In this document: positions 8,562 through 27,528 of the stretch, piece by piece | Layout of the letters: each line of letters opens with the position of its first letter | Numbering within the stretch: the first letter of the stretch is position 1 | Assembly: GCA_030674415.1 (NCBI GenBank) | Contig: JAUSGP010000006.1 | Coordinates: forward strand, 1 to 32,242 | DNA length: 32,242 nucleotides | Direction of reading: 5' to 3' | From: a bacterium | Lineage (GTDB): Bacteria; Patescibacteriota; Minisyncoccia; Phycocordibacterales; Zambryskibacteraceae | Position numbers and translations under genes: made by a program | The notes under the pieces: generated by a model | Databases searched by the model: none | What the model saw: only the letters and a program-made list of their open reading frames with translations | Told to the model about the DNA's origin: nothing

Positions 8562-8606
8562 ATGTCCTCCCAATGTGTTCTTACATCCCCCACCATTAAG
8601 CACTTT

Positions 8607-10250: not shown

Positions 10251-10281
10251 GGCGTTATTTTAACACACCCGTCTGCCATGC

Positions 10282-10310
10282 TTGGCACTAGCGGGCAGGC
10301 GTATTAAGAT
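10282..10310 (+). promoter_or_regulatory. Promoter of the LTD-protein/HIT gene pair, leaderless geometry
   Basis: TTGGCA (10282-10287), 17 nt, TAAGAT (10305-10310), 6 nt, ATG at 10317. Confidence 0.5.
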
Positions 10311-10316
10311 AACCTT

Positions 10317-13465: not shown

Positions 13466-14632
13466 TTATTCAACCTCTAGCCAGTTAGAAACAGTGTAGC
13501 CGCCGGACGGGCCATTGGTAAAGGCTGCGTCGACGAGACCTTGTTCGTAGGTAATGGTGGCATTATTGGAAAGAGAAATAGTTTTGGCACTAATTTGCTT
13601 AACTGCCGCACCATTACTCAATTCTACCGTACCATTCGGAGCATAGAGGATAACCGCTCCGGCATTATTGTCTAAACTGATGGCACTCCCGCTATTGTTA
13701 GTCGAGAGAAGCATGATATAGCTATTAGCGCTTCCTGAACCTTGGAAAGTGGAGCCGTTAGAGAGAGTAGAGACGCCATCGACTATAATAACCCCATCTC
13801 CTGAAGCGTACCCGGAGGAAAGTTTAATAATTGAACTGTTAGAAAGCACCAAGTTGCCGGTGATCCACAGAGTACCAGTAACAGTCAGGGTATCGCCGTT
13901 CCCGAGAGTGAGATTACCGTTAATCTTCTTAGGACCCAGTATGTTGTCGTCGCCAGATAAAGTCTGGTTGCCAACCGTACCGCCTGCGGCCGCCTCATTC
14001 TTCCAATCCGTTATTTGTGTATCAGTAATCGGAAGGGCTTGTGAAGAAACTCCGGTCTGGCTCTCTCCGCTAACACTTACCCCAGTGATAGATCCAACCG
14101 CGGAAGCATCGCCGGTTATAAACGAGCCGTTAGAACCAGAAATATTGCCGTTGGAATAGACATTACCATTCACTCCGGCGTTATTGCTCAAACTAAAGCC
14201 GCCCGCTCCGACCTGAATGCCATAGTGGAAAGCTACTCCTTCGCCCAAAAGCAGTTCGACTTTCACCTTGCGCATCAGAGTTCGTACTGTACCGGTAGCC
14301 GCCACATCTTTGCCAGCACTTGTATTGGTAGTGATTGTAGTGGCACTCGAACCATTAAGGTTCAGCACTTCGGTAGTGCCGACCGTCTCCCCGGTCTGAA
14401 GACGGAAGACCACATCCTCCACCCCTGATTCAGCCAGAAAGTAGCTTTGGCGCGAGGTTAGTAGTTGCGAGCTTAACTGCTGTTGGCGCACAATCGGCCC
14501 GACCAAGCCGAAAATGATAGTGATGGAAATTATCAAGAAAAACATGGTGGCCACCATCATTGCCTGTCCCGAGTCTAGTCGAGGGGCTTGCCCCGCTTTG
14601 TATTTATTCTTAAATCTTAAATCCTGAATCAT
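13466..14632 (-). CDS. PilX-like pilus-associated protein with a beta-helix-like Gly/Asn/Ser repeat region
   Basis: N-terminal TM (MMVATMFFLIISITIIFGL) followed by YFLAESGVEDV, as in PilX N-terminal domains. Then long G/N/S/T-rich repeats (GNISGSNGSFITGDASAVGSITGV). Last gene of the pilus gene string. Confidence 0.6.
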   Translation of the reverse strand: MIQDLRFKNKYKAGQAPRLDSGQAMMVATMFFLIISITIIFGLVGPIVRQQQLSSQLLTSRQSYFLAESGVEDVVFRLQTGETVGTTEVLNLNGSSATTITTNTSAGKDVAATGTVRTLMRKVKVELLLGEGVAFHYGIQVGAGGFSLSNNAGVNGNVYSNGNISGSNGSFITGDASAVGSITGVSVSGESQTGVSSQALPITDTQITDWKNEAAAGGTVGNQTLSGDDNILGPKKINGNLTLGNGDTLTVTGTLWITGNLVLSNSSIIKLSSGYASGDGVIIVDGVSTLSNGSTFQGSGSANSYIMLLSTNNSGSAISLDNNAGAVILYAPNGTVELSNGAAVKQISAKTISLSNNATITYEQGLVDAAFTNGPSGGYTVSNWLEVE

Positions 14633-14637
14633 AAATC

Positions 14638-15159
14638 TTATCTAATTATTGAGGTGCTATAAAACTTCTTGGTACGATAAGCGGTGCTAGTGCCGCTCTC
14701 TATGGTCATCTCTACCCTGACGCCTTCGGAATTCGTGCCACTGAAACGATTGAAAATTAATCCGGTAATCTCTGCATCACTTCCCGTAAGTGGCCCTAAG
14801 ACCACGGCATTTTCCTTCAAGATGAGCTGACCGGAAGAGAGATAAAATTCGACCGTACGCGGATTGCCACTCTGGTCCGTACTTTGTAACACCAATTTGC
14901 CCGGATGAGTACCGAGAATGCTCTCTCCGACATTAATACTCTCGGCCTCGCGCATTTCGCGGCTGATTCGCTCAATGCCAAGAACGGCGGAGTTCTCGAT
15001 ATTTCTCAAAGATTTGATTATTCTGTCAGATTTGGTCAGAGAAACAACCACTTGGATAATGATAACAAGCATAAAAACCAAAACTGTAATATAGACAAGC
15101 ATTTCTACTAGTGAAAAACCTCTTTGTTTCTGGAAAGATTTTTTCATTTTAGTTTGCAT
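14638..15159 (-). CDS. Prepilin-type N-terminal cleavage/methylation domain protein (pseudopilin)
   Basis: QRGFSLVEMLVYITVLVFML is a class III signal peptide motif (G-F-S/T-L-x-E). Confidence 0.85.
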   Translation of the reverse strand: MQTKMKKSFQKQRGFSLVEMLVYITVLVFMLVIIIQVVVSLTKSDRIIKSLRNIENSAVLGIERISREMREAESINVGESILGTHPGKLVLQSTDQSGNPRTVEFYLSSGQLILKENAVVLGPLTGSDAEITGLIFNRFSGTNSEGVRVEMTIESGTSTAYRTKKFYSTSIIR

Positions 15160-15565
15160 AAAGATTTGTGATATAAGTAGAAATATTTCTCGTAGTAGTA
15201 GCCCCGCTCGCTTGCCAAGAGACGCTTGAAGTGACTAGTTTAGTATTGGAATCCAGCGTCCCTCCCGAAGAAACGATATCGTCAGAAGCATCGCGGTAGA
15301 CTGGAGATAAGTTTACTGTTCTTTGGAAATTATCTATCCAAGTAGTAGTACTTGTAAGCGAAGCTATGTTGGTACTCCAAGATTGATCCCGCAAAAAACG
15401 TATTTCTTCAATCCCTGCTTCGGCAAGATAAGCCGCTTGCACCAGTTCAGCGTTAGAAAGCGCGGTTTTAAAGTAAAGCCCATAGACCCCCAGAAGGGTA
15501 ACTACTGCTCCCAGAATGATAGTGGAGGCAATCATCACTTCTACCAGCGTAAGTCCTTTAGTCAT
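15149..15565 (-). CDS. Prepilin-type N-terminal domain protein (pseudopilin)
   Basis: The internal Met gives MTKGLTLVEVMIASTIILGAVV. The 50-aa extension in the ORF track overlaps the upstream gene and is not pilin-like. Confidence 0.8.
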   Translation of the reverse strand: MTKGLTLVEVMIASTIILGAVVTLLGVYGLYFKTALSNAELVQAAYLAEAGIEEIRFLRDQSWSTNIASLTSTTTWIDNFQRTVNLSPVYRDASDDIVSSGGTLDSNTKLVTSSVSWQASGATTTRNISTYITNLYAN

Positions 15566-15575
15566 AAATGTTTTA

Positions 15576-16055
15576 TCAATTGGATTCAATTGCTCCAGTA
15601 CCGGAGATGTAAATGGTGCGAAAGTTAGTGGTAGAGGCCTTGAGATAAACCTCGAAGGTGCCGGACTGATCGGTCTGCCCCGAGAGTTTTTTAAAAATAA
15701 CGTTGGTACCGCCACCAGAAAGACTTATATTGCGCATCCCGACCAGCGCATTAAGAGTGGTGATTGAATTATTAGAATCAATAGCGGAGTAACTCGAACC
15801 TCGGAACAATACTAACTGATCACTCTCTAGGTTAACCCCGTATTGATAGCCATTCTTAGCAGAAAGAGTTAATGAGCGGGACTCATTGAGCACAGAAACC
15901 GCTAAGTCCGCGCTTTTATCCAACGCTTGATTTGCATTTAATTTAGAAAAAGAGAGTGTAACGATAGTAATGGAGGCGACCATGATACCGATAGCCACGA
16001 GCATCTCCATCAGAGTAAACCCCTTGTTGGTCGTTAGTCGTCGGTTGTAAGTCAT
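15576..16055 (-). CDS. Prepilin-type N-terminal domain protein (pseudopilin)
   Basis: NKGFTLMEMLVAIGIMVASITIV motif. Abuts the pilC stop. Confidence 0.85.
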   Translation of the reverse strand: MTYNRRLTTNKGFTLMEMLVAIGIMVASITIVTLSFSKLNANQALDKSADLAVSVLNESRSLTLSAKNGYQYGVNLESDQLVLFRGSSYSAIDSNNSITTLNALVGMRNISLSGGGTNVIFKKLSGQTDQSGTFEVYLKASTTNFRTIYISGTGAIESN

Positions 16056-17282
16056 TTAGATGTAATCCACCAGAGAATATGTCGGCATGAGCATCGAGAT
16101 GGCGAAGATTCCTACGCCAATACCGATGATAATCATGAGTACCGGCTCGATAATAGTTGAGAGATCTTTGGTCTTCTGATCGACCTCGTCTTCATAGAAA
16201 GTAGCTACTCCTAGAAGCATTTCAGCAATCTTGCCGGTCTCCTCGCCAACCGCAATCATCTCACCAACGAAGAGCGGATAGAGATGCTCGTAACCGACGA
16301 AGACCGCCGACATGGCCTCGCCTTTCTGTATAGCATCGCGCGCCCGTGTCAACGCTTCTTTGTATAAATGATTTTGCATGACATCTATCGTCACGTCGAG
16401 TGCTACCACGATCTCAACTCCGGCAGAGAGGAGCGAGGAAAGGGTGCGCGCTGTTCTCGCCGCCTGCACTTCCCGGATCATCTCACCGATGACCGGTAGA
16501 CGTAAGACGGCGGAATCGACCAACTCCCTACCAGTCTTGCTACGGAGAAACATAGTCAGACCGGCGCAGAGTACCAGAAGCGTCCCCAGGACAAGTATCG
16601 TATTGTTGACCAGGAAATCACTTAAGAAAATGATAATCCTAGTTGGAAGTGGCAAGGCCACTCCCAACCCTTCGAATGTAGCAGTGAGTGTCGGCACCAT
16701 GAAGATGAGTAGTAGGATGGCGAGGATAACCATGACCGAGAGGATGACCGCTGGGTAGATGAGCGCTCCGCGCACTTTCTTTATAAGCAGGTATGACTTC
16801 TCCATCTGATTGCCGACAATTGCGAGGGACCCAGAGACGCTCCCCGACTCTTCGCCAGCCTTAACCATCGAGACGAAGAGTCCGGAAAAGACCTTGGGAC
16901 GTTTATTTAAAGCTTCTGAAAGTGTTGTGCCGTGACTAACATCGGCTTCGAGATCGGCGAGAAGTGATTTCAGAGATTTGCTCTTGGTCTGCTTGCCCAT
17001 GACCGAGATAGCTCTGGTCACGGGAAGTCCCGCCTTGATCATCGAGCCCAAGTTCTTGGCGAAATTGATCTTCTGCTGGGTTTTGATACCGCCGAAAAAA
17101 CTGCCAAGAGAAAATGAGAAGGATGAGTTCAAAATACCCAATCCTGTAGCCTCTTTAATGGAAACGACTGTGCCGCCTTCCTCACGAATGATTTTATAGA
17201 GCGCGAACTTATCCGCCGCTTCAACTGCGCGTTCATAGACTTCCCCCGTCTTACTCTTCGCTTTGTATTTGTAAAGAGGCAT
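16056..17282 (-). CDS. pilC: Type IV pilus / T2SS platform protein (GspF/PilC family)
   Basis: 408 aa with a duplicated T2SSF-like architecture and three TM segments. Follows pilB after a 4-nt gap. Confidence 0.9.
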   Translation of the reverse strand: MPLYKYKAKSKTGEVYERAVEAADKFALYKIIREEGGTVVSIKEATGLGILNSSFSFSLGSFFGGIKTQQKINFAKNLGSMIKAGLPVTRAISVMGKQTKSKSLKSLLADLEADVSHGTTLSEALNKRPKVFSGLFVSMVKAGEESGSVSGSLAIVGNQMEKSYLLIKKVRGALIYPAVILSVMVILAILLLIFMVPTLTATFEGLGVALPLPTRIIIFLSDFLVNNTILVLGTLLVLCAGLTMFLRSKTGRELVDSAVLRLPVIGEMIREVQAARTARTLSSLLSAGVEIVVALDVTIDVMQNHLYKEALTRARDAIQKGEAMSAVFVGYEHLYPLFVGEMIAVGEETGKIAEMLLGVATFYEDEVDQKTKDLSTIIEPVLMIIIGIGVGIFAISMLMPTYSLVDYI

Positions 17283-17286
17283 TTAA

Positions 17287-19038
17287 TTATTCTGAAACCA
17301 CCCTTAAGACTTCTTCGATAGTGGTCGTGCCTTGCACCGCTTTGAAGATACCGTCTTCGATCATAGTCATCATACCATCAGTCTTGGCTCGATCTTCGAG
17401 ATCTCCGGCTGTGGCACCCTTCATGATCAATTCTTTGATAGTCGCCGTCACGCGAAGCACTTCGTGGATGCCAATACGACTTGCGTAGCCGTCTTCGGAA
17501 TCTTTGCCAGGCACGGGCTTCCAGAACGGGATCTTATCCCACTCATCCTTCGGTCCGACGATCTTCTCCTCTCTTAAGAGAGTGAGCATGCGCTCGAGCG
17601 AGACAACATTGCCAAGAGAAGTCAGTTCTTCTTTATTCAAAAAGTATTTGGTCTTACTAGCCGCGAGCTTCCTCACTAATCTTTGCGCGATAACGATATT
17701 TAAAGTGGAGACCAGGAGGAAGGGTTCGGCCTTCATATCTAAAAGGCGTGGGATGGCTCCGGCGGCCGAGTTGGTGTGTAAAGTCGAAAGCACGAGGTGT
17801 CCAGTAAGTGAAGCATTGATAGCGAGGCCTGCCGTCTCATTGTCACGAATTTCTCCCACCATGATGATGTCTGGGTCCTGACGTACCAAAGTGCGCAAGC
17901 CGTTGGCGAAGGTGAAGCCGATCTCTGGGCGCACCTGGGTCTGATTGATGCGTGCCATCTGATACTCGATTGGGTCCTCGATGGTCGAAATGTTTACGCT
18001 CGGGGTGTTTAAGATATCGAGCATGGTATAGAGCGTAGTAGTCTTGCCTGAACCAGTTGGACCAGTGGCGAGTACCATACCAGTAGTCAGCTTAAGCGCC
18101 TTATGAATATCTTCTAAGCCATGACCGTGGAAGCCCAGGCCCTCGAGGGTAAAACCAGAAACACTTTCACGCAGAAGACGCATGACCGTCTTTTCCCCAT
18201 AATAAGTGGGCAAAGTGGAGACGCGGAAAGAAACTTTTTCCCCCTCGGCGTCGATCTTGAAGCGGCCATCTTGGGGAATGCGTTTCTCGTCGAGCTTGAG
18301 ATTGGAAAGCACCTTGATGCGGGCGGTAATACCGGAAGCGGTGTTCTTCGGCAGGATCATAGCGTCACGTAAGATACCGTCAATGCGATAGCGCACCAAG
18401 ACCTGATTCTCTTCCGGCTCGATATGAATGTCGGAAGCGTCCTGGATGATGGCGTGCTTGAGCAAGGTATCGACAATGCGCACCACTGGGATATCTTCGG
18501 CGAGCTTCTTTAATTCATCTTCGGGAGCATCGTCATCCATCGAGTCTTTCATGGGCTGTAGAGCAGAAGCTTCTGCTTGGATGATATCGCCGAACTCCGC
18601 TTTCAAAGTCTTTTGATAGGAAAGGAGCGCCCACTTCATCGACTCGCCATCAGTCAGACGCGGTAGGATCCTCAACCCCACCTTCTTCTTAACGAAGTCG
18701 ATAGCGGTCAGATCCTCTGTATCAAGCATAGCCACTTCGAGAGCCTCTGCGGTCTTCTTGAAGGCCACAATATTGTGATTCCTCGCGATCGGCTCCGGGA
18801 TGAGCGAGAGTACGGGGAAATCGAGCTTCTGATTCTTCAAATCAACGAAAGGAATGCCGAGAATGTAGGCCTGCATGCGACGCAGATCATCTTCGGAGAG
18901 AATGCCGCGACTGATCAATACCGAGCCGATGCCTTGCTTCTTCTCGCGCGAGAGAGAGATAGACGCTTCCATCTCATCCTTGGAGATCAAGCCGGAGTCG
19001 ATGATAAAATTTTCAAGTTGAGTCTCGTCAATGTGCAT
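17287..19038 (-). CDS. pilB: Type IV pilus assembly ATPase (GspE/PilB family)
   Basis: N-terminal T2SSE_N-like domain, Walker A GPTGSGKTTTLY, MVGEIRD (Asp box/Walker B region), LVLSTLHTN (His box). Confidence 0.93.
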   Translation of the reverse strand: MHIDETQLENFIIDSGLISKDEMEASISLSREKKQGIGSVLISRGILSEDDLRRMQAYILGIPFVDLKNQKLDFPVLSLIPEPIARNHNIVAFKKTAEALEVAMLDTEDLTAIDFVKKKVGLRILPRLTDGESMKWALLSYQKTLKAEFGDIIQAEASALQPMKDSMDDDAPEDELKKLAEDIPVVRIVDTLLKHAIIQDASDIHIEPEENQVLVRYRIDGILRDAMILPKNTASGITARIKVLSNLKLDEKRIPQDGRFKIDAEGEKVSFRVSTLPTYYGEKTVMRLLRESVSGFTLEGLGFHGHGLEDIHKALKLTTGMVLATGPTGSGKTTTLYTMLDILNTPSVNISTIEDPIEYQMARINQTQVRPEIGFTFANGLRTLVRQDPDIIMVGEIRDNETAGLAINASLTGHLVLSTLHTNSAAGAIPRLLDMKAEPFLLVSTLNIVIAQRLVRKLAASKTKYFLNKEELTSLGNVVSLERMLTLLREEKIVGPKDEWDKIPFWKPVPGKDSEDGYASRIGIHEVLRVTATIKELIMKGATAGDLEDRAKTDGMMTMIEDGIFKAVQGTTTIEEVLRVVSE

Positions 19039-19047
19039 AAATTTGTT

Positions 19048-21405
19048 CTAAAATTCTTCAAATTGCGGATCGAAGTTGATCTGGGCAGTAGCCGCTGGGC
19101 AACTGGATTGGATAGAGTCCGTGTCGGTAATAGTTACGACAGCAGTCTTCTGTCCGATGGTACTGTAAGTCCGGTTATAAGGATTGCTACTAGGAGCAGG
19201 ACTGGTCGGGATATTGGTCCCGCTCCACGAGTAAGTGAATGGTGCTGTCCCTCCAGAGAAAGTGGCTGTCCAAGTCACACTCTCTCCGACGAAAGCGGTC
19301 GAGGGGGAGGCAACGCAGGAGACAGTAATTGGACTTCCTGAAACGATCAGGTTGAAACTCGTTTGCTTGCTTAAGGGAGAACCTGTTACCGTAATCAGAT
19401 AAGTGCCGAGGGGAGTGCTGGGACTGACCGTAAAGGTAATGACCGAGGTGCACGCCGGAGAACACGAGCTCGGCGCGATGGAATACGAAGTGCCCGAAGG
19501 TACCCCCGAGACAGAGAGGGTGATAGGCTCTGTCGTACCAGTCAAGAGAGTCTTAGTAATAGTGTTTTGAGTGAAGGCGTTGCTATTAGTTTTGGTCACA
19601 TTGGAGTTGCCGGAATTGGAAAGCGAGTAATTGAAGGGCGGTGGCGCCACGCTGAAATTAACTCGCGCCGTCTTGTCGCCATCGATGAGAGCCGAGCAGG
19701 TAGCGCTCTGACCACCACAGATCGTGCCACTCCCGGGCAACCATTTGTCAAACTCGTATCCGGAAGCGGGCGTGGCGATGAGAGTAATCCAGCCGATATT
19801 AGAAGAGTAGGTCTCGCTACAATCCCCCGGACAACTAATGCCAGGCCCGCTTATGGTGCCGGAGCCAGAATTCACGGAAGCAGTAACGGTATAAGTAGTG
19901 GTGACAAAGTTGGCTGTCACACTCTTGGCCGCATCCATAGTCACCGTGCAACCACCACTGCCGGAGCACGCGCCGGACCAGCCACTAAAGCCAGAACCAG
20001 ATGAGGGAGAAGGGGTGAGCGTAACAGCAGTATTGTAGTTATAAACCTCCGAACAATCACTCCCACAACTCACACCGGCGGGACTTGAGGTCACGGTGCC
20101 AGAACCTGCGCCAGTTTTGGAAACAGTCAGAGTGTAAACAAGAGTGGCACAGCTACTGCCATTCCAAGCTGTGCCTACGGCACAAGTTACAGAGGACCCA
20201 GAAATAGTTTCTTGATCAAGTAAAACGCCATTATTATAAAGATAGAAAGTTTCACCGCCCCATTTAATAGCGAAGGGAACATTGGTACCAGAATTCCCAG
20301 TCGCTACCGTCACATTGGTCGGTTTGGTGATTACAGAAGTGTCGATAGGATTTGTCGTGGTCCAAGAGAAATTGATATTACAGCTACTGGCCCCCGCAGC
20401 AATAACACAAGAAGAAGAAGCGGGAGTAAGGGTACCAGTACTCGGGATGACCTGAATGTCGCCGATGGTCAGCGCCCCCTGCGCGCCAGCACCAGCCGAG
20501 CCGGCATAGCCGAAGTTCGAGCCGCCTCCCCCACCACCACCGGCTCCCCGATTACCACCAGCAAGACTCACCCCGCCGCCCGCGCCACCACCACCAGCGC
20601 GCTGACTACCATTGCCACCTATTGCAGTTCTCGAAACTCCGGCGGCACCGGGTACCAAAGAAGCATTCTCGTCATTGTCGTATTCATAGTACCAACCAGC
20701 GCCGCCAGCACCGCCAGTTTCAGAAAGACCATCTCCGCCCGCCGCACCACTTGAGTTGTTGCCTGTATCATCACCGTGGCCAGCGCCTCCTCCGCCGCCG
20801 GTACCGTTACCGGCGGCGGACCCCTTCTTGCCGGGATTATGACTGGGGGCGGCGCCATTTCCCCCATCACCACCCTTCACCCCTCCAGAACCAACGTTAG
20901 CCGAGCCGCCCGTGCCACCCACCGAGTGATCGTAGGATTCCACAGGAGCTTGTCCGCCACCACCGCCACCCAAGCTCAAATAAACCGTACCTCCGGAAAT
21001 CTGGAAGGTGGTGCTCCCGCCAGCACTACCAACACTGCCGAAAGAACTGCCACCGACGCCAGCAGCACCGACAACAGCAGTGTAGGTTGTCCCCGTCTCA
21101 AGAGTGACGGTAACTCCATTTAGATTTGTCGCTCCGCCGCCACCGCCGGCTCCGCCCCATCCAGTAGAAGAGTCGTAACGACCACCTCCGCCGCCACCAC
21201 CACCAGCCACACCCTTCACAACAATAGAAAGCTTGGCATTGACCGTAATGGTATAAGTACCGGGAGTAGTGAAATTTAAAGTGCCGGCGGTAGCGGCATG
21301 GGTACCGGAAGCCGGTCCACTGTAGGTAATGGTGGGGGTCACGGCAGAAGCTAATCCCGGATTCATCACCACCAAGAGCGCTAATATAATAACGGCAGTA
21401 CGCAT
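19048..21405 (-). CDS. Secreted 785-aa modular protein: glycine-rich domain, Ig-like region, two InlB-B-repeat-like modules, PKD-like C-terminus ending FDPQFEEF
   Basis: Signal peptide MRTAVIILALLVVMNPGLASA. LNFTTPGTYTITV…VVKGVAGGGGGGGG opens about 300 aa of poly-Gly-rich sequence. YTLTVSKTGAGSGTVTSSP…FSGWSG…VTANF and a second copy follow. VTWTATFSGGTAPFTYSWSG is PKD-like. The stop lies 9 nt before the pilB start. Confidence 0.85.
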   Translation of the reverse strand: MRTAVIILALLVVMNPGLASAVTPTITYSGPASGTHAATAGTLNFTTPGTYTITVNAKLSIVVKGVAGGGGGGGGRYDSSTGWGGAGGGGGATNLNGVTVTLETGTTYTAVVGAAGVGGSSFGSVGSAGGSTTFQISGGTVYLSLGGGGGGQAPVESYDHSVGGTGGSANVGSGGVKGGDGGNGAAPSHNPGKKGSAAGNGTGGGGGAGHGDDTGNNSSGAAGGDGLSETGGAGGAGWYYEYDNDENASLVPGAAGVSRTAIGGNGSQRAGGGGAGGGVSLAGGNRGAGGGGGGGSNFGYAGSAGAGAQGALTIGDIQVIPSTGTLTPASSSCVIAAGASSCNINFSWTTTNPIDTSVITKPTNVTVATGNSGTNVPFAIKWGGETFYLYNNGVLLDQETISGSSVTCAVGTAWNGSSCATLVYTLTVSKTGAGSGTVTSSPAGVSCGSDCSEVYNYNTAVTLTPSPSSGSGFSGWSGACSGSGGCTVTMDAAKSVTANFVTTTYTVTASVNSGSGTISGPGISCPGDCSETYSSNIGWITLIATPASGYEFDKWLPGSGTICGGQSATCSALIDGDKTARVNFSVAPPPFNYSLSNSGNSNVTKTNSNAFTQNTITKTLLTGTTEPITLSVSGVPSGTSYSIAPSSCSPACTSVITFTVSPSTPLGTYLITVTGSPLSKQTSFNLIVSGSPITVSCVASPSTAFVGESVTWTATFSGGTAPFTYSWSGTNIPTSPAPSSNPYNRTYSTIGQKTAVVTITDTDSIQSSCPAATAQINFDPQFEEF
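19051..19897. repeat. Dispersed repeat copy 1 (about 840 bp), paralogous to 24237-25076
   Basis: Recognisable DNA identity, for example gatcgaagttgatctg near the 3' ends of both genes and ctacaatcccccggacaact in both. Encodes the shared C-terminal module of about 280 aa. Confidence 0.85.
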
Positions 21406-21424
21406 GTTATTCTATTTTAACACA

Positions 21425-22453
21425 ATGAAGAAAAAATTTTATATCAACATTCTCATTCTCGGGGTATTTCTTGTCGGATCGGTCATACTGATTACCCGTA
21501 CCTCATCGAATGCTGCACCGGAAATAGAAAAGATTAAAAATCTCACCAATGCCGAAGCTCAGGGGGTGGAATTAAAAAAACTTTTGGAAAGAGTTGGTCC
21601 CACCGAAGCCCAGGAGCAAATGCTCCACTCGGGACTCCCCTTCACTGGGCAAACTCACCTACTTATACATGTCATCGGGGATTATATCTACAACCAATAC
21701 GGCCCAGAGGGGCTCGCCCTGTGTCGAGACTACTTCCTTTCGGCCTGTTATCACGGCTTTATCATCAACACTTTGGGCGATCACGGCATGGACGGGATGC
21801 AAGATGCGATGGAGAGATGCAATTCTGCACCGCTGGGTGTAGCAACGCAATGCGCGCATGCCGCCGGACACGGCTTCACAGCTTGGCATGACTATGATCT
21901 TCTTAAGGGACTCTCAATGTGCGATGAATTAGGTGAGAGGGTTGTAGATTTTACTTACTACAACTGTTATGACGGCGTCTTTATGGAAAATGTCTGGGGC
22001 GTCCACAACGGCACACCTTCGGAGAAAAGATGGGTTAAAACCGATGACATCTACTATCCCTGTAATGACTCGCGCATCCCGGAAAAATATTTGAAGGGCT
22101 GTTGGGCCAACCAGGCCACTCTCATCTACCAGCATTTCAAGGGCGACCTGAAGAAAACTGCCGAAGCCTGCGACGCTGTGAAGAACCCAAGCTACCAAGA
22201 AACCTGTTACAACAACTTCTCCCGCCAGATTCACCCTCTAACCAAGGGAGATAAGGAAAAAGTTTTCTCCTTGTGCGCCAATGCCACAGGGCAGAAGTGG
22301 CAAGACGAGTGCGTGCTGACCAACATGGTCGCCTATTTCTCGGTCGGAGACAGAATCTTGCCTGAACAAATCTGTAATATGGCCAGAAGCGAGTTAAAAG
22401 ACCGTTGCCTTGAAAGACTCGACGGCATGATAAAGTATTATAGTGGTGAATAA
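21425..22453 (+). CDS. Membrane-anchored or secreted Cys/His-repeat protein (paralog A, 342 aa), function unknown
   Basis: Start at MKKKFYINILILGVFLVG (ATG 21425, with TATTTT 6 nt upstream). Motifs ACYHG, QCAHAAGHG, NCYDGVFMEN and YYPCN are shared with the next gene. Confidence 0.8.
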   Translation: MKKKFYINILILGVFLVGSVILITRTSSNAAPEIEKIKNLTNAEAQGVELKKLLERVGPTEAQEQMLHSGLPFTGQTHLLIHVIGDYIYNQYGPEGLALCRDYFLSACYHGFIINTLGDHGMDGMQDAMERCNSAPLGVATQCAHAAGHGFTAWHDYDLLKGLSMCDELGERVVDFTYYNCYDGVFMENVWGVHNGTPSEKRWVKTDDIYYPCNDSRIPEKYLKGCWANQATLIYQHFKGDLKKTAEACDAVKNPSYQETCYNNFSRQIHPLTKGDKEKVFSLCANATGQKWQDECVLTNMVAYFSVGDRILPEQICNMARSELKDRCLERLDGMIKYYSGE

Positions 22454-23723
22454 AATCTCTCTTTTCGTATTCCTACTATTTACTGTCTACTGTCTATTAC
22501 CCACTAATGCCTTCGCTCATGGCGACGCACATGGAGAACTGATCATCCGCATGACGGATAACGGCTTTGAGCCTAAAGAGCTGACAGTTACCGAAGGCGA
22601 CGAGATACTTTTCATAAACAACGACGACACGGACCGCTGGCCGGCCTCAAACTTCCACCCTTCTCACACTCTTTATCCCGAATTCGATCCCAAGATGCAT
22701 GTGAAGCCCGGGGAATCATGGAAATTTATTTTTGAAAAAACGGGGACATGGAGGATGCACGACCATCTCATCCCCCACATGACCGGTACAATTGTGGCAC
22801 TTGAGGTTTCTACCACTACCAACACCGAGACCACAACGCCGGAAACCAAGCCAAGTCTCTGGGCTAAGTTCAAAAATTTCCTCCTCAAATTATTCGAGAG
22901 GAAACCGGCGGAAGAAGCCTCCTATGATGACCATGCCAAGGCCCATTTGAAGGGCCAGCTTTTTTTCAAAGAATACGGTTTAGATGGAGTAGCTTATTGC
23001 ACTAGAGAGGCGGCCTTCGGTTGCTATCATGGGCTCTTGGAAGTGGCCTTTGCTGGCCAGAGCGAAGAGAAATACCGGGATAATCTCCTCGAAGCCGAGG
23101 GGAGTTGTCGCAAACTAGGGCGTGAGACTTCAGGAAGCTTCGCGAGCTGTATCCACGGCATAGGCCACGGCACGGCGACGTATCGAGAGCACGCTCTCGC
23201 AGTAGCACTTACGGATTGCGATACTTTAAGCCAGAAGATCAGGACTTACTGTCATGACGGCGTCTTTATGGAATTCTCGATCAGCGCGCCGTCAAGCTTT
23301 TATCATAAAGAAAATCCTATTTACCCTTGCGATGTCGCCGACGAAAGTTACAAAGTCGCCTGCGCTCGTTCTCAAGTCCAAGTCATGAGACTGCGCTTCG
23401 GTTTCGACACCAATACTATTATAGAGACGTGTGAAGAGACCGGGAATCAAAAAATTATTTATAACTGCATTGACTCTCTAGGCTACTTCATCGCCAAGAG
23501 AGCATCTGGCGAAGCAAGCAAAATCATCACCAGTTGCAATGAGATTAAGGGGGAGGCGGCCGCGGCGCAATGCGTAGCCGCGGCCGCCGGTGAACTAGTC
23601 TTCCAAGACACGCTAGGCTGGCAACAATCGGCCCCAGCAGTTTGTCAAATGCTTAGAGAGCCGTACCAACAGAAATGCCTAGAGCGAGTAGCTCAAGTTA
23701 AGCAATCATACGGACGAGACTAG
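22443..23723 (+). CDS. Secreted cupredoxin-like domain fused to a Cys/His-repeat domain (paralog B, 426 aa)
   Basis: Signal peptide …LLPTNAFA|HGDAHG. TVTEGDEILFINNDD…WRMHDHLIPHMTGTIVAL has a cupredoxin-like layout, but no Cys at the position expected for the copper ligand. Thr-rich linker. Then GCYHG, SCIHGIGHG, YCHDGVFMEF and IYPCD, matching paralog A. GTG start overlaps the upstream gene by 11 nt. Confidence 0.8.
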   Translation: MVNKISLFVFLLFTVYCLLPTNAFAHGDAHGELIIRMTDNGFEPKELTVTEGDEILFINNDDTDRWPASNFHPSHTLYPEFDPKMHVKPGESWKFIFEKTGTWRMHDHLIPHMTGTIVALEVSTTTNTETTTPETKPSLWAKFKNFLLKLFERKPAEEASYDDHAKAHLKGQLFFKEYGLDGVAYCTREAAFGCYHGLLEVAFAGQSEEKYRDNLLEAEGSCRKLGRETSGSFASCIHGIGHGTATYREHALAVALTDCDTLSQKIRTYCHDGVFMEFSISAPSSFYHKENPIYPCDVADESYKVACARSQVQVMRLRFGFDTNTIIETCEETGNQKIIYNCIDSLGYFIAKRASGEASKIITSCNEIKGEAAAAQCVAAAAGELVFQDTLGWQQSAPAVCQMLREPYQQKCLERVAQVKQSYGRD

Positions 23724-23725
23724 AA

Positions 23726-24223
23726 TTATTTTATAAGATACGAGAGCTGGACCAGAGTCTTACCTCCATTAGCACTTATCGCCACCGAGAGATTAGCCTC
23801 TACTTTAGTACCGAAGAGGGCTCTGACCGGAGCGTTGGTACTGCCTTCGGTGATCTGGTAACCGGCGTTAGTCAAATAACTTTTGTATTCGGCGTATTTC
23901 TGAGCCACCGTCTTATCGCTCCGATAACTGACAGAAAGCTGACTCGCGTCCTGATTAGGATATTCGGTAGTGGCACTTTCTAGAATCACTCCCACCTCCA
24001 AAGGAATTTCTGCTGGGAAACCAGCCGGGGCTCTTAGCGTGCCATTGACCGCTGGAGTTTCTGTAACCACGACTACCATTTCCTGACTTCCGTTTTGAGT
24101 ATCAGTTCCCTCTTCAACTTCGACAGGAGTACTCTTCATCTTGAAGAATAGAAATCCTGCTCCGATAATAAGTATGATGCCGAGAACGGCTGAAATATTT
24201 TTAATGTTTGGTGATGTGTCCAT
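23726..24223 (-). CDS. Hypothetical N-terminally anchored 165-aa protein
   Basis: Single N-terminal TM (AVLGIILIIGAGFLFF) and an extracytoplasmic domain with no recognised motif. Lies directly downstream of the 447-aa surface protein. Confidence 0.6.
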   Translation of the reverse strand: MDTSPNIKNISAVLGIILIIGAGFLFFKMKSTPVEVEEGTDTQNGSQEMVVVVTETPAVNGTLRAPAGFPAEIPLEVGVILESATTEYPNQDASQLSVSYRSDKTVAQKYAEYKSYLTNAGYQITEGSTNAPVRALFGTKVEANLSVAISANGGKTLVQLSYLIK

Positions 24224-24233
24224 AATAATTTAA

Positions 24234-25577
24234 TTAAAATTCCTCAAAATTGGGATCGAAGTTGATCTGAACGGTAGCTGGAGCGCAAGTAGTGATAAGA
24301 CCATCGGCATCGGTCACTCTAAGTGTAGCAGTTTTCTGTCCGATGGTGCTGTAGGTACGACTATAAGGGTTGGTAGCGGGAGCCGGATTGGTCAGGATAT
24401 TGGTACCGCTCCATGAGTAGGAGAGAGGTGGTGTGCCGCCAGAGACCGAGCCGGACCAGGTGACATTCTGGCCCACGAGCGTGGTGGGCGGATTAGCGAA
24501 ACAGGTGGCCGTAGTGGGGTTACCAGAGATGACCAGGTTGAAGTTGGTGGTCTTACCGAGTGGAGCGCCAGTTATAGTGATCGGGTATGTGCCGACAGGA
24601 GCACTTGAAGGAACGGTGAAGGTGACGGTAGACGAGCATGTCGGATTGCAAGGGTTAGAACTAACAGAGTACGAAACTCCCGAGGGTGTGCCGAAGACAG
24701 CTAGAGTAACCGACTGGCTGGGGCCGCCAGAAAGAGTTCTGGTGATAATGTTTTGAGTGAAGGCATTGCCATTGGTCTTAGCCACGTTGGAATTGCCGGA
24801 ATTCGAGAGACTGTAATCGAAGGCCGGTACCGGGGTGAAATTCACTCGTGCCGTCTTGTCAGCGTCGACGAGCGCCGAGCAGGTAGCACCCTGTCCGCCG
24901 CAGATAGTACCGTTCGAGGGAATCCAGTTATTGAATGAGTAGCCACTAGCCGGAGTTGCAATCAAGGTGATCCAGGTGCCGACATTATAAGTCTCACTAC
25001 AATCCCCCGGACAACTGATACCCGGTCCGGTGATAGTACCAGAGCCGGAGTTAATAGAAACAGAGACGGTATAAGTGGTGGGAGGTGGCGTAGGATAAAG
25101 ATAAGATGGTGTGGGGTAATCGTATTCCTCTTCCGGAGTTGGGTAGTTGTATGGAGGTGTAGGGTAGATATAAGACGGCGTGGGATAATTATAAGAAGGA
25201 GTGGGATAGTCGTATAAAGCAGAAGGACTTTGATAAGAAGGGGTGGGATATTCGTAAGAAGGAGGTGGGGCAGGATAATCATAAGGTGGAACTGGGTAGT
25301 CATATGGTTCAGGGTCTGGATCCGAGCAATAGCTTGGGTCATAACCCTCACATCCGGGGTTACAAATGTCATAGCATGCCCCATCTCCACCGCCGCCGTC
25401 ATCACATTGATCAGGATTACCATAGCAATCGAGATCTGCATCACACTCCCAATAACAGCCCGATTGAGCCATGGCAACATCTGGCGAAGGAATAGCTGGG
25501 GTCACAATGATAGCGGCTATAATCATTGCGGACGCGAGTATCAAAGCAGAAAATATATTTTTCTTTTCTTTTTTCAT
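24234..25577 (-). CDS. Secreted 447-aa modular protein: acidic Cys-rich module, YPTPSY tandem repeats, InlB-B-repeat-like module, PKD-like C-terminus ending FDPNFEEF
   Basis: Signal/anchor KKNIFSALILASAMIIAAIIV. CYWECDADLDCYGNPDQCDDGGGGDGACYDICNPGCEGYDPSYC. At least 8 copies of (Y/D)YP(T/A/V)P(S/P)Y. The C-terminal 280 aa are colinear with the 785-aa protein. Confidence 0.85.
   Translation of the reverse strand: MKKEKKNIFSALILASAMIIAAIIVTPAIPSPDVAMAQSGCYWECDADLDCYGNPDQCDDGGGGDGACYDICNPGCEGYDPSYCSDPDPEPYDYPVPPYDYPAPPPSYEYPTPSYQSPSALYDYPTPSYNYPTPSYIYPTPPYNYPTPEEEYDYPTPSYLYPTPPPTTYTVSVSINSGSGTITGPGISCPGDCSETYNVGTWITLIATPASGYSFNNWIPSNGTICGGQGATCSALVDADKTARVNFTPVPAFDYSLSNSGNSNVAKTNGNAFTQNIITRTLSGGPSQSVTLAVFGTPSGVSYSVSSNPCNPTCSSTVTFTVPSSAPVGTYPITITGAPLGKTTNFNLVISGNPTTATCFANPPTTLVGQNVTWSGSVSGGTPPLSYSWSGTNILTNPAPATNPYSRTYSTIGQKTATLRVTDADGLITTCAPATVQINFDPNFEEF
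24237..25076. repeat. Dispersed repeat copy 2, paralogous to 19051-19897
   Basis: See copy 1. Both copies are on the minus strand (direct orientation), about 5.2 kb apart. Confidence 0.85.
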
Positions 25578-25578
25578 A

Positions 25579-26226
25579 TCAATTTTTGGATACTCTCTGC
25601 ACTACCACCGCTTCAGTGGAATTGTTATCACTTGGGTACATCACTATTCTGAACAAATAATCCCCCTTTTCTAACAGAAGCATTATGGCGTCATCTTCAG
25701 CATAGACATGTCCCGCCACTAGACGGAAATAATTGGGAAGAATAGAATTTTTGTAATATTGGAATGTATCAAGTAGGTTGGTGTCATAATTAAATACAGC
25801 CCTTACCCCTGTAGAACCGTCCTCGAAGGTCATTTGAGATACTGCCAAGGGATCATGATTAATTTTAAATGGGGCTAGAGTTATAACATCTTGATCGGCC
25901 AGTACTTTTTCACTTATTATTTTGGGAATCTGGTATTGCTTGTAGCGGTCACTGGGCTCTTCTGCCTTGCGCATTATGCTCTCTATTTCAGTAGCAGATG
26001 GCCGGCCTCTTGCCCCATCAACATTTTGCGTAAGGGCATTCTCAAGAAAAGATTCTACCCCAACGCGATCAAAGGTGGTGGTGTTTGGTTGTTTGATTAT
26101 ATAAAGAAAGACAACGAGCAATAATACAATAACAATTACAAGGATTGTCGATAATTTGTGCGGTTTCTCTTGCTGGACATTAATTGGATCCGGCGATAAA
26201 GGAAGTTGTGGGCCCATCGATTCCAT
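25579..26226 (-). CDS. Hypothetical N-terminally anchored protein (about 215 aa)
   Basis: TM STILVIVIVLLLVVFLYII, no recognised domain. Start placed at the ATG at 26226, which follows a promoter with leaderless geometry. The ORF-track TTG start at 26232 falls between that -10 box and the ATG. Confidence 0.6.
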   Translation of the reverse strand: MESMGPQLPLSPDPINVQQEKPHKLSTILVIVIVLLLVVFLYIIKQPNTTTFDRVGVESFLENALTQNVDGARGRPSATEIESIMRKAEEPSDRYKQYQIPKIISEKVLADQDVITLAPFKINHDPLAVSQMTFEDGSTGVRAVFNYDTNLLDTFQYYKNSILPNYFRLVAGHVYAEDDAIMLLLEKGDYLFRIVMYPSDNNSTEAVVVQRVSKN

Positions 26227-26232
26227 AAACAA

Positions 26233-26341: not shown

Positions 26342-27445
26342 CTAGTGGGGCACGATGTACCCCTGCCGGTGACGAACCTCCAGGCCACGCCCGTTTACCT
26401 TGATGGTAATTTTGCGAGTCGTGCCCGGCTTATTGCCAGACGGCATCACGTAGCCGAGCAGATAGTGGGAACTGTGTTCGTGCACAACCCGACTGAAAGC
26501 GCGCGCGAAGTCGTTGGTACGAAGGATTGGGTTCTCCCCCGTCTCTTCGGAAAGCATCATCAGGGATTGATGGCCGCTATTAGGAGCTCCAAGTCCCCTT
26601 GCGTCAATAGAAACGATAGAAAGATTGGCCCCTCTCAAATTTTTTTTCGTATCCCCCATAATGCTGGCAAACGCGGCGTTATCGGCCATAATTTGCGCAT
26701 TGATAGATGGCTCAACCATAGCTCGCCGGTCGGACCGGGGTAGCTGATTTAAACCTTCGACCCCTTCGCTGAAAAGTAAGACGACTTTCCGTTGAGTAGG
26801 GAGGTTCTCGTTGCTCCAAGCGGTGAGGTCGTTGACAACCCGGAAGAACTTGAGAGCATTTGCCCTCCTTTCTGCCAAAGTTGCCTCCACATCGCCGTTA
26901 GGTCGCCGACCGACAAACCTACCGAGAGCCTTCAAGAGAAGCCCCCGGTCGTTGGTGAAATCCTGACCCAAACCGCCGATACCGCTGCTATAGACGATCG
27001 ACATCAAGTCGTTGTCCGAGAAGAATTGCTCGACGAACAACTGAGCCCTCTTCTTGACATCGAACCACGCCGACGCCACCTCACATTCTGGCAGATCGCT
27101 CGCACAACTCGTGGTATGAAGGTCGTCGAGAATCATGATGTAAACGCGGCCGAGGGACTCGGCTCTCACATCCACACCTGACTCCGCTATCGTCATCGCG
27201 AGTTTGACGTCCCCGGTGTTTGAGAACGGAATCTCGATGAACGAGAAGTTTGTGACCGGCTGCGGCTTCCCTTCGTCAAGAATGGTGAAATCGTCCTTGG
27301 TCAACCCGTGAACAACTTCGCCGTTCTTATTTGTGACAAGTACGTTGACCTCCACCAGTTCGGTTTCGGTTCGGAATCTCTCCTGCTGTGCCGTTGCCTG
27401 GCCAGCAAGTAGAACGCTGACGACGACTAAACACAGCAGTTTCAT
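26342..27445 (-). CDS. Secreted VWA-domain protein of the VWFA-related (Acidobacteria-type) family
   Basis: Signal peptide MKLLCLVVVSVLLAGQATAQQ. The N-terminal module FRTETELVEVNVLVTNKNGEVVHGLTKDDFTILDEGKPQPVTNF is characteristic of that family. VYIMILDD is a MIDAS-region-like strand. AGGAG sits 6 nt upstream of the ATG at 27445. Clearly GC-richer by eye than its neighbours. Confidence 0.75.
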   Translation of the reverse strand: MKLLCLVVVSVLLAGQATAQQERFRTETELVEVNVLVTNKNGEVVHGLTKDDFTILDEGKPQPVTNFSFIEIPFSNTGDVKLAMTIAESGVDVRAESLGRVYIMILDDLHTTSCASDLPECEVASAWFDVKKRAQLFVEQFFSDNDLMSIVYSSGIGGLGQDFTNDRGLLLKALGRFVGRRPNGDVEATLAERRANALKFFRVVNDLTAWSNENLPTQRKVVLLFSEGVEGLNQLPRSDRRAMVEPSINAQIMADNAAFASIMGDTKKNLRGANLSIVSIDARGLGAPNSGHQSLMMLSEETGENPILRTNDFARAFSRVVHEHSSHYLLGYVMPSGNKPGTTRKITIKVNGRGLEVRHRQGYIVPH

Positions 27446-27528
27446 TGTCATCTCCTAAGAATTGGTGCCGACAAGACAAAGAACAGAGAAAACTAGCCTG
27501 ACACTAGTATACCATCTATAATAGATGT

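Follow-up and report, generated by a model that had tools for sequence, protein, structure and literature searches.

FEEF-tailed secreted proteins and Cys/His solenoid proteins interleaved upstream of a type IV pilus operon in a Zambryskibacteria-like Patescibacterium

Gene content of the variable region

The window analysed here is a stretch of 32,242 nucleotides from an ultrasmall bacterium, a Zambryskibacteria-like Patescibacterium. Between a conserved ExoPhos/UPF0102 block and a type IV pilus operon it contains a variable spot with six genes, G1 to G6, whose layout is as first described and in which two modules are interleaved rather than one six-gene system being present. The features are, by position and strand:

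13466..19038, minus: type IV pilus operon, downstream of G1
13466-14632, minus: gene for a 388-aa protein, last of the pilus operon, followed by TIM and PGK
14638-16055, minus: three pseudopilins with N-methylation motifs, pilus operon
16056-17282, minus: pilC, pilus operon
17287-19038, minus: pilB, pilus operon
19048..21405, minus: G1, FEEF-tailed secreted protein of 785 aa (profile and sequence comparison)
19048..19665, minus: C-terminal module (CTD) of G1, last 205 aa and stop codon
19903-20127, minus: best match of the two InlB B-repeats of G1
about 20470-21270, minus: glycine-rich tail-fibre-like domain of G1
21425..22453, plus: G2, Cys/His protein of 342 aa, N-terminal TM helix followed by an all-alpha solenoid
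22443..23723, plus: G3, 426 aa, signal peptide, cupredoxin-like domain and Cys/His solenoid domain
22470-22799, plus: cupredoxin-like domain of G3 (Cupredoxin_1 match)
about 22932-23720, plus: Cys/His solenoid domain of G3
23726..24223, minus: G4, bitopic membrane protein of 165 aa, starting 10 nt after the G5 stop
24234..25577, minus: G5, FEEF-tailed secreted protein of 447 aa
24234-24851, minus: CTD of G5, stop codon included
24831-25061, minus: single InlB B-repeat of G5
25083-25304, minus: nine YxYPxP repeats of G5
25326-25457, minus: Cys-rich stretch of G5
25579..26232, minus: G6, N-terminally anchored protein of 217 aa, its stop 1 nt before the G5 start codon

The coordinates agree with the original prediction of a 785-aa secreted protein whose gene stops 9 nt (aacaaattt) before the pilB ATG at 19038; no terminator-like site was found in these 9 nt. 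The Cys/His pair indeed diverges from G1 at a distance of 19 bp, with the ATGs of G2 (21425) and G1 (21405) on opposite strands. In the window the order FEEF gene, G4, FEEF gene, pilB of locus L085 recurs, interrupted by the inverted Cys/His pair.

G1 consists, in order, of a Sec signal peptide cleaved between ..LASA and VT, a glycine-rich domain, a Cys-containing middle part, two InlB B-repeats (Flg_new_2) and the CTD. Its passenger, the part in front of the CTD, matches phage tail-fibre families and Gly_rich_2, the latter at the N-terminus with 21.5 bits, under the cut-off of 24.3. The CTD comprises an Ig-like domain (FNYSLSNSG..CSPxC), a PKD/Ig-like domain (VTWTA..SGG..PxTYSWSGTN) and the tail INFDPQFEEF-COOH. 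In G5 a signal peptide, the Cys-rich stretch, the nine YxYPxP repeats and one InlB B-repeat precede the CTD; a PKD_4 match to G5 stayed sub-threshold. The claim that G5 repeats the last 280 aa of G1 is correct: residues 507-785 of G1 recur in G5 with 65% identity over 280 aa (E 8e-122), and both proteins end in FEEF. Neither a C-terminal LPXTG motif nor a pilin-type N-terminus was found in G1 or G5.

G5 is flanked, as proposed, by two N-terminally anchored proteins, G4 and G6, each with a single N-terminal hydrophobic segment; sequence comparison revealed no relationship between the two. In G4 a TM helix, predicted by AlphaFold2 at residues 6-29, is connected through a disordered linker to a beta-beta-alpha-beta4 ectodomain, whose fold matches were weak (DcrB, PsbP, LpqN and Eag-type proteins, E 0.005-0.05). 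G6 is an orphan in our dataset, without a homolog among the 168 fetched loci. The statement that none of the six proteins has a nameable function stands, since profile libraries gave generic domains only.

The FEEF family: a constant C-terminal module upstream of pilB

G1 and G5 represent a family that has no name; its members all have a Sec signal and a conserved CTD of ~205 aa, but their passengers are unrelated. Among 45 unique complete ORFs (269-1018 aa) every one of the 1980 ordered pairs aligns over the last 205 aa (median identity 62%), whereas hits cover less than 20% of the passenger in 86% of the pairs. An exhaustive HMMER search added dozens of representatives that carry the module at the extreme C-terminus, again behind unrelated N-terminal parts. 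Tail-fibre-like, TSP1-like, CARDB and B-repeat domains are present among the passengers, and that of G1 has no homolog among the 168 fetched loci. The family is restricted to a single Zambryskibacteria-like clade, in which it occupies essentially one locus in one to three copies.

A conserved C-terminal module on unrelated passengers is also known from the T9SS CTD, from LPXTG proteins and from SLH and other cell-wall-binding domains. Those modules, however, mark many proteins per genome, at many loci, and FEEF proteins have neither an LPXTG motif nor a C-terminal TM segment nor an SLH domain. The low copy number at a fixed locus, the conserved and presumably anchoring end joined to a hypervariable exposed end, and the adjoining gene for a bitopic partner would also suit an S-layer-type arrangement, in which the FEEF proteins form the main surface coat, with a conserved C-terminal anchoring or lattice module and an exposed part that varies between strains, and G4 serves as membrane anchor. 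We consider this quite improbable, as size and domain content vary far beyond what is expected for a lattice-forming protein and as profile searches revealed neither SLH nor any other known domain for S-layer anchoring.

Nearly all members share the tail consensus [IV]NF[DN]Px[FL]EEF. The last residues before the C-terminus rank with the best-conserved ones of the protein, and xEF-COOH is invariant. Selection acts on the tail at the protein level; its codons vary synonymously (GAA/GAG 44/22, TTT/TTC 51/14, all four CCN codons used). Loci without G4 conserve the tail to the same degree, so that G4 is not its sole partner. TcpF of Vibrio cholerae and CofJ of ETEC are soluble non-pilins secreted by type IVb pili of diderm hosts; they are encoded in the pilus operon and dock on a minor pilin via a short N-terminal peptide. 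FEEF proteins are likewise non-pilins of a pilus operon with a short terminal peptide, for which docking is a candidate role, but their conserved peptide is C-terminal. A Sec-exported FEEF protein might thus dock via this peptide on the minor-pilin complex and be carried or released by the pilus. For a non-pilin encoded by the first gene of an assembly operon, with an end conserved under protein-level selection and regardless of G4, such a role is conceivable; we nevertheless regard it as unlikely, given that the tail may merely complete the last Ig-like domain, that FEEF genes also occupy the site without adjacent pilus genes and that no homology to TcpF, CofJ or PilY1 exists.

The position of the genes was evaluated for 56 non-redundant FEEF genes whose downstream sequence extended over at least 700 bp. 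The co-occurrence in relatives that had been suggested for the six genes holds for the FEEF genes, 38 of which are followed on their own strand by pilB, at most 5.2 kb away, and for G4, the conserved downstream partner, whose homolog is preceded by a FEEF gene in 7/7 cases inspected gene by gene; it does not hold for the Cys/His pair or for G6. Thirteen of the 38 abut pilB directly, with gaps of 9-177 nt (exception: L160, with pilB 1,251 nt downstream), and 19 reach it via a G4 homolog. Synteny, shared strand and very short gaps suggest a functional tie of the FEEF proteins to the pilus. Synteny is weak evidence for this tie because the clearly unrelated TIM and PGK are equally syntenic: they trail the pilus operon as faithfully, on the same strand and with equally short gaps.

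Possibly, though we doubt it, FEEF proteins and G4 are lineage-specific surface proteins in a variable-gene hot spot and work independently of the pilus. The entire neighbourhood is collinear in the clade (ComEC, RNase H, RecJ, LTD, HIT, PGK, TIM, the pilus genes, then ExoPhos and UPF0102), the slot has also received other genes in different lineages (VWA and GH5 in the window; TPR, DsbA, transglutaminase and radical-SAM in relatives), and in at least five lineages (L084, L138, L154, L163, L166) the FEEF gene persists at the site where adjacent pilus genes are missing. On the other hand, the strand and the place immediately upstream of pilB have been kept through several rearrangements, among them presence and absence of G4, tandem duplication and insertion of the Cys/His cluster, and FEEF genes are almost never found away from this site.

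The Cys/His solenoid family

G2 and G3 are paralogs, as had been noted (23% identity over 300 aa, E 2e-21). The AF2 model of G2 is an all-alpha solenoid with a mean pLDDT of 94, in which seven Cys pairs each join a helix hairpin. These 14 Cys and six His residues (78, 82, 110, 145, 149 and 194 in G2) are invariant in the family. A Foldseek search with G2 gave no enzyme-like relative, the 318 homologs returned are all unnamed, and no relative of known structure or function was found for the family. The closest analogy is offered by the Helicobacter Hcp proteins, Sel1-like repeat proteins with one disulfide per helix pair: both are secreted alpha/alpha repeat solenoids built from hairpins of about 33-36 residues with one stapling Cys pair each. 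In contrast to Hcp, G2 and G3 match no Sel1 or TPR profile and have the six invariant His residues and CxH and GHG motifs; the family has an N-terminal membrane anchor, is fused to a cupredoxin in some members and was found only in contigs that are assigned to Patescibacteria, unclassified or doubtfully labelled.

The cupredoxin-like domain noticed in one of the paralogs is confirmed for G3, whose N-terminal domain passes the Pfam threshold of Cupredoxin_1 (PF13473; 29.6 bits against a cut-off of 27), a family including the EfeO N-terminal domain. Unlike blue-copper carriers it has no Cys or Met ligands; its conserved site is His-only with one aspartate (H72, H75, H106, D107, H108). A type-1 copper electron carrier has been proposed for CPR NirK partners (PMC5581439). 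With these conserved residues and without Cys or Met ligands such a function is ruled out for G3.

The family spans the Patescibacteria with 80 species-level loci, of which only 2 contain FEEF modules and 10 show pilB at a distance of no more than 10 kb. Among the 26 loci with a length of at least 20 kb, 20 encode a cupredoxin paralog. A Tyr/Pro-rich ORF lies near the Cys/His gene, usually directly adjacent, in 41/83 loci. The family is thus weakly linked to pilB and strongly linked to secreted Tyr/Pro-repeat proteins. Within the FEEF family, Tyr/Pro-rich passengers occur in 4/8 proteins with a Cys/His cluster and in 0/37 without (Fisher p = 5e-4, uncorrected for phylogeny and based on 4 proteins).

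The claim that all six genes are one pilus-tied set did not survive this comparison. A single pilus-linked surface system would account for the interleaving of the genes, which is seen in the window and shared by a minority of relatives (L001, L003, L005, L089, L110, L114), and G2 and G3 may have the Tyr/Pro-rich passenger of G5 as their client. Still, we hold it to be very improbable: the distribution of the Cys/His family is separate and phylum-wide, the pair is missing from most FEEF-G4-pilB loci, and G6 has no counterpart in the fetched loci.

Proposed roles of the two modules

We give an even chance to the assumption of two independent modules, FEEF surface adhesins co-expressed with the pilus and metal-binding Cys/His proteins that act on Tyr/Pro-repeat clients. 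G2 and G3 would then be extracytoplasmic, disulfide-stapled, His-rich helical-repeat proteins that bind metal, probably copper, at a putative site and presumably act on or bind neighbouring secreted Tyr/Pro-repeat proteins. In the window the client would be the repeat stalk of G5.

The other module would comprise G6-G5-G4 and G1, with G1 and G5 as Sec-exported non-pilin surface proteins, best read as hypervariable surface adhesins co-expressed with the pilus. The CTD, with its Ig-like and PKD-like domains and xEF-COOH tail, presumably keeps the protein attached to the envelope or the pilus apparatus, and membrane-tethered G4 would be its accessory partner in roughly half the lineages. The passenger, which would face outward, is swapped freely among relatives: tail-fibre-like and glycine-rich in G1, a Cys-rich stretch with YPTPSY repeats in G5. 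The plan recalls the PilY1/PilC-type proteins, large Sec-exported non-pilin adhesins of pilus gene clusters in which the variable N-terminal part binds targets and the conserved C-terminal part presumably provides the coupling to the pilus. FEEF proteins share these traits of size, export, gene location and conserved C-terminal/variable N-terminal layout, but do not match PilY1/PilC in sequence, have Ig-like and PKD-like domains instead of a C-terminal beta-propeller, are encoded upstream of pilB and not among the minor pilins, and show far more extreme passenger turnover.

Cultivated Saccharibacteria bind their hosts via type IV pili (PMC11623550). In the present organism, the FEEF genes are probably transcribed together with pilB-pilC and the pseudopilins, by which attachment proteins and pilus would be made together for binding of a host cell or surface. 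Because the CTD is constant while the outer part differs almost completely between relatives, the FEEF proteins may determine what the cell attaches to.

Gene layout around the pilus operon

The original prediction treated six genes next to the type IV pilus operon as one surface system physically tied to the pilus. They are arranged as follows.

G1, 19048-21405, minus strand: secreted, FEEF-tailed protein of 785 aa
G2, starting at 21425, strand opposite to G1: Cys/His protein
G3, 22443-23723, overlapping the end of G2: Cys/His protein
G4, 23726-24223, minus strand: small N-terminally anchored protein, 10-nt gap to G5
G5, 24234-25577, minus strand: secreted, FEEF-tailed protein, 1-nt gap to G6
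G6, 25579-26232, minus strand: N-terminally anchored protein

The layout described in that prediction was reproduced throughout. G1 is separated from the ATG of pilB at 19038 by a 9-nt spacer (aacaaattt), in which no terminator-like site was found, and G1 and G2 lie on opposite strands with their start codons 19 bp apart. G2 and G3 are paralogues (23% identity, E 2e-21), G3 having a Cupredoxin_1 domain in addition. Residues 507-785 of G1 recur in G5 with 65% identity (E 8e-122), and the two proteins share FEEF as their last four residues; G4 and G6 each possess one N-terminal hydrophobic segment and show no relationship to each other. The statement that none of the proteins has a nameable function also agrees with our searches, as profile libraries give just generic domains. 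By the names of the best hits and loci, the source is a Patescibacterium of Zambryskibacteria/Minisyncoccia type. The convergent stop codons of G3 and G4 (23723-23726) are 2 nt apart, a packing as tight as that at the starts of G1 and G2 (21405-21425), and promoters and terminators must therefore fall within coding sequence at these sites.

Some further features of the surroundings were recorded. The pseudopilin ORFs as listed at 15149-15715 and 15576-16055 overlap by 140 nt; the N-methylation motif lies near residue 53 of the 188-aa pseudopilin ORF, so that its real start codon is probably located about 150 nt further downstream. The product of 10317-11282 is secreted and has a lamin-tail domain (LTD; 31 bits, under the cut-off of 34.3); all relatives of the clade conserve it at this position. 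Between G6 and a conserved ExoPhos gene, the region 26342-28554 codes for a VWA protein of the TIGR03436 'acidobact_VWFA' type (E 3e-42) and a GH5 cellulase-like protein. No homologue of either was found in 168 related loci, and both are thus lineage-specific insertions.

FEEF proteins and their link to the pilus operon

G1 and G5 carry Sec-type signal peptides (LASA followed by V and AMA followed by Q, respectively) and both match the InlB B-repeat profile (Flg_new_2, PF18998) with 39.4 bits for G1 and 33.6 bits for G5 at a cut-off of 23.6. The PKD profile (PF18911) remains under its cut-off of 27 with 22.8 bits on residues 368-437 of G5, and a sequence search of the PDB gave nothing beyond weak hits to phage decoration domains of Ig-like type (E ~2e-3). 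Gly_rich_2 (PF21722) covers profile positions 1-221 of 226 on residues 46-312 of G1 at 21.5 bits, under the cut-off of 24.3; the glycine-rich assignment is supported by matches of this N-terminal region to phage tail-fibre PHROG families (E 1.6e-6). Neither protein is a type IV pilin or pseudopilin, a class defined by a class III signal peptide, an N-methylation motif (PF07963) and a hydrophobic helix. The N_methyl profile gave no match in residues 1-506 of G1 (E ≤ 1) or in full-length G1 and G5 (E ≤ 0.1), and it does match the true pseudopilins at 14638-16055 and 31140-31706. Sortase (LPXTG) substrates can be dismissed as well: both proteins end in FEEF without a C-terminal hydrophobic segment, and the sole LPxxG of G1 is internal, at residue 556.

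A word-index search with the module shared by G1 and G5 yielded 64 proteins with very different N-terminal parts, about 50 of which end in [IV]NF[DN]PxFEEF. By exhaustive profile search the module was found at the extreme C-terminus of dozens of further representatives of 210-1510 aa, whose variable N-terminal parts (passengers) include glycine-rich, Cys-rich, poly-Pro, TSP1-like, CARDB-like and multi-B-repeat regions. The passengers of two family members, P0314 and P0390, contain thrombospondin-type-1-like motifs (WSPWSSCSASCGGG...), which are unusual in bacteria. For a quantitative comparison we pooled 45 unique complete FEEF ORFs (269-1018 aa) from all loci. All pairs align over the last 205 aa with a median identity of 62%, and BLASTP hits cover less than 20% of the passenger in 86% of the ordered pairs; pilB of the same loci is 79-84% identical to pilB of the window. 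The tail codons of the FEEF genes vary synonymously, which indicates that the peptide, not a DNA signal, is under selection; the idea that this conserved stretch serves the next gene as a signal in the DNA was rejected for this reason. An S-layer-type coat built of these secreted proteins, constant at one end and changing at the other, appears very unlikely to us. The FEEF family is unnamed in any source, and literature searches on Zambryskibacteria and Parcubacteria pili, on surface proteins and on CPR cupredoxins brought up nothing on the FEEF, G4 or Cys/His families.

The genomic position of FEEF genes was compared in loci fetched from relatives (L numbers).

Gene order at pilus loci of relatives
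L083: TPR, FEEF, G4, pilB, pilC, pseudopilins, TIM, PGK
L085: FEEF, G4, FEEF-like, pilB and the remaining operon
L086 and L087: FEEF, G4, pilB
L088: FEEF, G4, three other genes, pilB
L003: FEEF, G4, inverted G2, pilB

Gene order in the window is that of L085, except that G4 and G1 are separated by the Cys/His pair as an inverted insertion. In L088, a transglutaminase-core protein and a radical-SAM/SPASM enzyme are encoded at 8538-10313, between G4 and pilB. Two other genes look like retroelement-type insertions within the pilus region, namely one for a reverse transcriptase of 348 aa (RVT_1), located between TIM and pilB (L001, 6110-7156), and a gene of the 23S_rRNA_IVP family (PF05635) between pilB and pilC (L086, 10331-10708).

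An independent metagenome scan with the conserved C-terminal domain gave 80 loci that were de-duplicated to 67 gene groups; linkage was counted for the 56 groups with at least 700 bp of downstream sequence.

Genes found downstream of FEEF genes (56 gene groups)
Same-strand pilB within 5.2 kb: 38
G4, then contig end or (L163) TIM directly: 5
Cys/His genes, then contig end: 4
TIM directly, without pilus operon: 2
None of the tested genes: 7

The route to pilB leads via G4 in 19 groups, is direct in 13 and passes an inverted Cys/His cluster or a second FEEF gene in three groups each. Direct gaps measure 9-177 nt, with the exception of L160 (1,251 nt). Among the seven groups with none of the tested genes, a long flank is present in L166 only and consists of 8.5 kb of housekeeping genes. 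From this distribution it follows that the FEEF family is essentially confined to one site. Co-occurrence with pilB is supported for the FEEF proteins, 38 of 56 groups reaching pilB, and for G4; it is not supported for the Cys/His pair and G6.

A shared site can also reflect pure synteny, in which FEEF and G4 genes occupy a variable hot spot beside the pilus operon and act independently of the pilus. In synteny and in tight packing with the operon, TIM and PGK equal the FEEF genes, and several lineages keep a FEEF gene without adjacent pilus genes; because of these two observations a functional tie between pilus and FEEF protein is something we infer. Pure synteny is nevertheless rather unlikely in our estimation. 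A constant C-terminal domain, a hypervariable passenger and a position at the head of the pilus operon would fit a surface adhesin or host-recognition protein that is made together with the pilus, and we would class the FEEF/G4 arrangement as a variant among the non-pilin surface proteins that are associated with pili. The narrower possibility that FEEF proteins are cargo of the pilus or are docked at its tip seems improbable.

For G4, 80 homologues were found, all of the same clade. The AF2 model (pLDDT above 90 at residues 50-165) predicts a TM helix, a disordered linker and a beta-beta-alpha-beta4 domain. Its best fold matches are weak and comprise CalU16, DcrB, PsbP, LpqN, MTC28, TiME and Eag proteins, which are of an envelope binding or chaperone type; several homologues have precomputed matches to PF27226 (AF_1845), flagged weak in one locus table. 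An assignment of G4 or G6 to PilN, PilO or PilM is not supported: neither had any Pfam match at E ≤ 10, and the top 50 Foldseek matches of G4 are of the DcrB, PsbP, LpqN, MTC28, TiME and Eag type, none being PilN or PilO. The idea that the FEEF tail has G4 as its only receptor was rejected as well: loci that lack G4 conserve the tail to the same degree, which makes G4 an accessory partner at most. G6 is an orphan, with no homologue in any of the 168 loci.

The Cys/His module and the Tyr/Pro-repeat proteins

Of the 318 homologues of G2 (48-74% identity), not one is named or carries a Pfam domain. When a single genome of each species was scanned, 80 Cys/His loci were found in Paceibacteria, Microgenomates (Levy-, Davies-, Curtiss- and Gottesmanbacteria), Doudna-, Andersen- and Kaiserbacteria and others, and every protein of the window was searched against these loci, 26 of which are at least 20 kb long. 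The cupredoxin-bearing paralogue is present in 51 of the 80 (20 of the 26 long ones). No more than 10 loci have pilB at a distance of up to 10 kb (4 of the long ones), the FEEF module and G4 occur in two loci each, and G6, the G1 passenger and the VWA and GH5 proteins in none of the 80. The proposal that the six genes form one system can thus not be maintained, since the Cys/His pair is a separate, phylum-wide module. In close relatives (L002, 13938-14444; L001, 13647-14129), G2 and G3 are followed by a protein of the Lipoprotein_15 family (PF03640) and by a third Cys/His paralogue of greater divergence, where the window has G4-G6, VWA and GH5 instead.

Fourteen Cys and six His residues are invariant in the family. 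The cysteines form seven pairs, 8-15 residues apart, each straddling one helix-turn-helix; the histidines (H78, H82, H110, H145, H149 and H194) belong to the motifs HxxxH, CYH and CxHxxGHG. The AF2 model of G2 (mean pLDDT 94.4) consists of an N-terminal TM helix and an all-alpha solenoid. Neither single-sequence search (phmmer) nor an 81-sequence family profile matched a PDB chain, no Pfam repeat profile, Sel1-like and TPR included, matched G2 or G3, and Foldseek found generic TPR/ARM/PPR solenoids only (TM-scores 0.2-0.25, E of at least 0.04). The six invariant His and the CxH motifs had suggested a tyrosinase or another type-3 copper protein; this idea was rejected, as there was no Pfam match at E ≤ 0.1, no PDB sequence match and no four-helix-bundle di-copper protein of this kind among the Foldseek matches. 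Right after the membrane anchor, the family has a nearly invariant SGLPFTG(E/Q)TH (21629-21658, residues 69-78 of G2), which resembles LPXTG, yet is N-proximal and runs straight into the first invariant His, H78.

Cupredoxin_1 (PF13473) matches residues 10-119 of G3 with 29.6 bits at a cut-off of 27. The His-Cys-His-Met set of type-1 (blue) copper proteins is absent, no Cys or Met being conserved across 47 homologues, and the plastocyanin model, with its cut-off at 87.85, reaches 16 bits; invariant in the 47 sequences are H72, H75, H106, D107 and H108. Since it lacks Cys and Met ligands, this domain is not a blue-copper electron carrier and differs in this respect from the electron carriers that are discussed as NirK partners in CPR bacteria (PMC5581439). 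We regard the Cys/His proteins as a family that is conserved throughout Patescibacteria and is as yet uncharacterised.

Clustering of neighbouring ORFs revealed a secreted protein of about 800-950 aa in 32 Cys/His loci, in which N-terminal Cys-rich repeats precede a long series of YYTPP/YPTPSY-type repeats. Secreted proteins of 800-980 aa that adjoin the Cys/His cluster in Microgenomates and other lineages (L072, 10595-13261; L046, L016 and about 30 further loci) contain repeated GGCx5Cx2YCxDPxNx3C units and YYTPP/YPTPSY repeats over hundreds of residues; no Pfam family matched these Tyr/Pro-repeat proteins. Judged by composition alone, a Tyr/Pro-rich ORF is present in 41 of 83 loci, usually 0.1-1.5 kb away and with shared strand. 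G5 has a passenger of just this kind, with a Cys-rich stretch and then nine YxYPxP repeats of 21-nt period. Such passengers occur in 4 of the 45 unique complete FEEF proteins, all four at Cys/His-cluster loci, and in 0 of 37 at loci without the cluster (Fisher p = 4.7e-4, kinship ignored). Apart from this association, we found no real link that connects the two modules of the window. Conserved residues and gene neighbourhood suggest that the Cys/His and cupredoxin module may bind metal and may act on Tyr/Pro-repeat proteins.

Implications for host recognition and envelope biology

Host recognition in Patescibacteria is, to our knowledge, largely unknown, and we know of nothing for Paceibacteria-type lineages. 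PMC11623550 states that all Patescibacteria in culture live attached to other microbes, that type IV pili drive host binding in Saccharibacteria and that, in cultivated representatives of the latter, large accessory domains on minor pilins mediate this binding. By analogy, the role of these minor-pilin domains may be filled here by a protein that is not a pilin, the FEEF protein.

A more far-reaching reading has two separate parts, one for each module, and as a whole is quite unlikely to be correct. FEEF proteins would be interchangeable host-specificity heads of the pilus, and, separately, the phylum-wide Cys/His and cupredoxin proteins would be a new class of extracytoplasmic metalloproteins that modify or cross-link Tyr/Pro-repeat surface proteins. 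After Sec export of the FEEF protein, NFDPxFEEF-COOH and the Ig/PKD module would dock on the pilus or its base, presumably with the help of G4. The pilus would then present the passenger, which would be swapped between close relatives as the host range changes.

With its presumed coupling end constant and its exposed end replaced, the FEEF gene is an obvious candidate for a host-range determinant, and strains in metagenomes can conveniently be typed with this locus as a marker. The Cys/His and cupredoxin family, phylum-wide and unannotated, with Tyr/Pro-repeat proteins as its likely clients, represents a good target for envelope biology.
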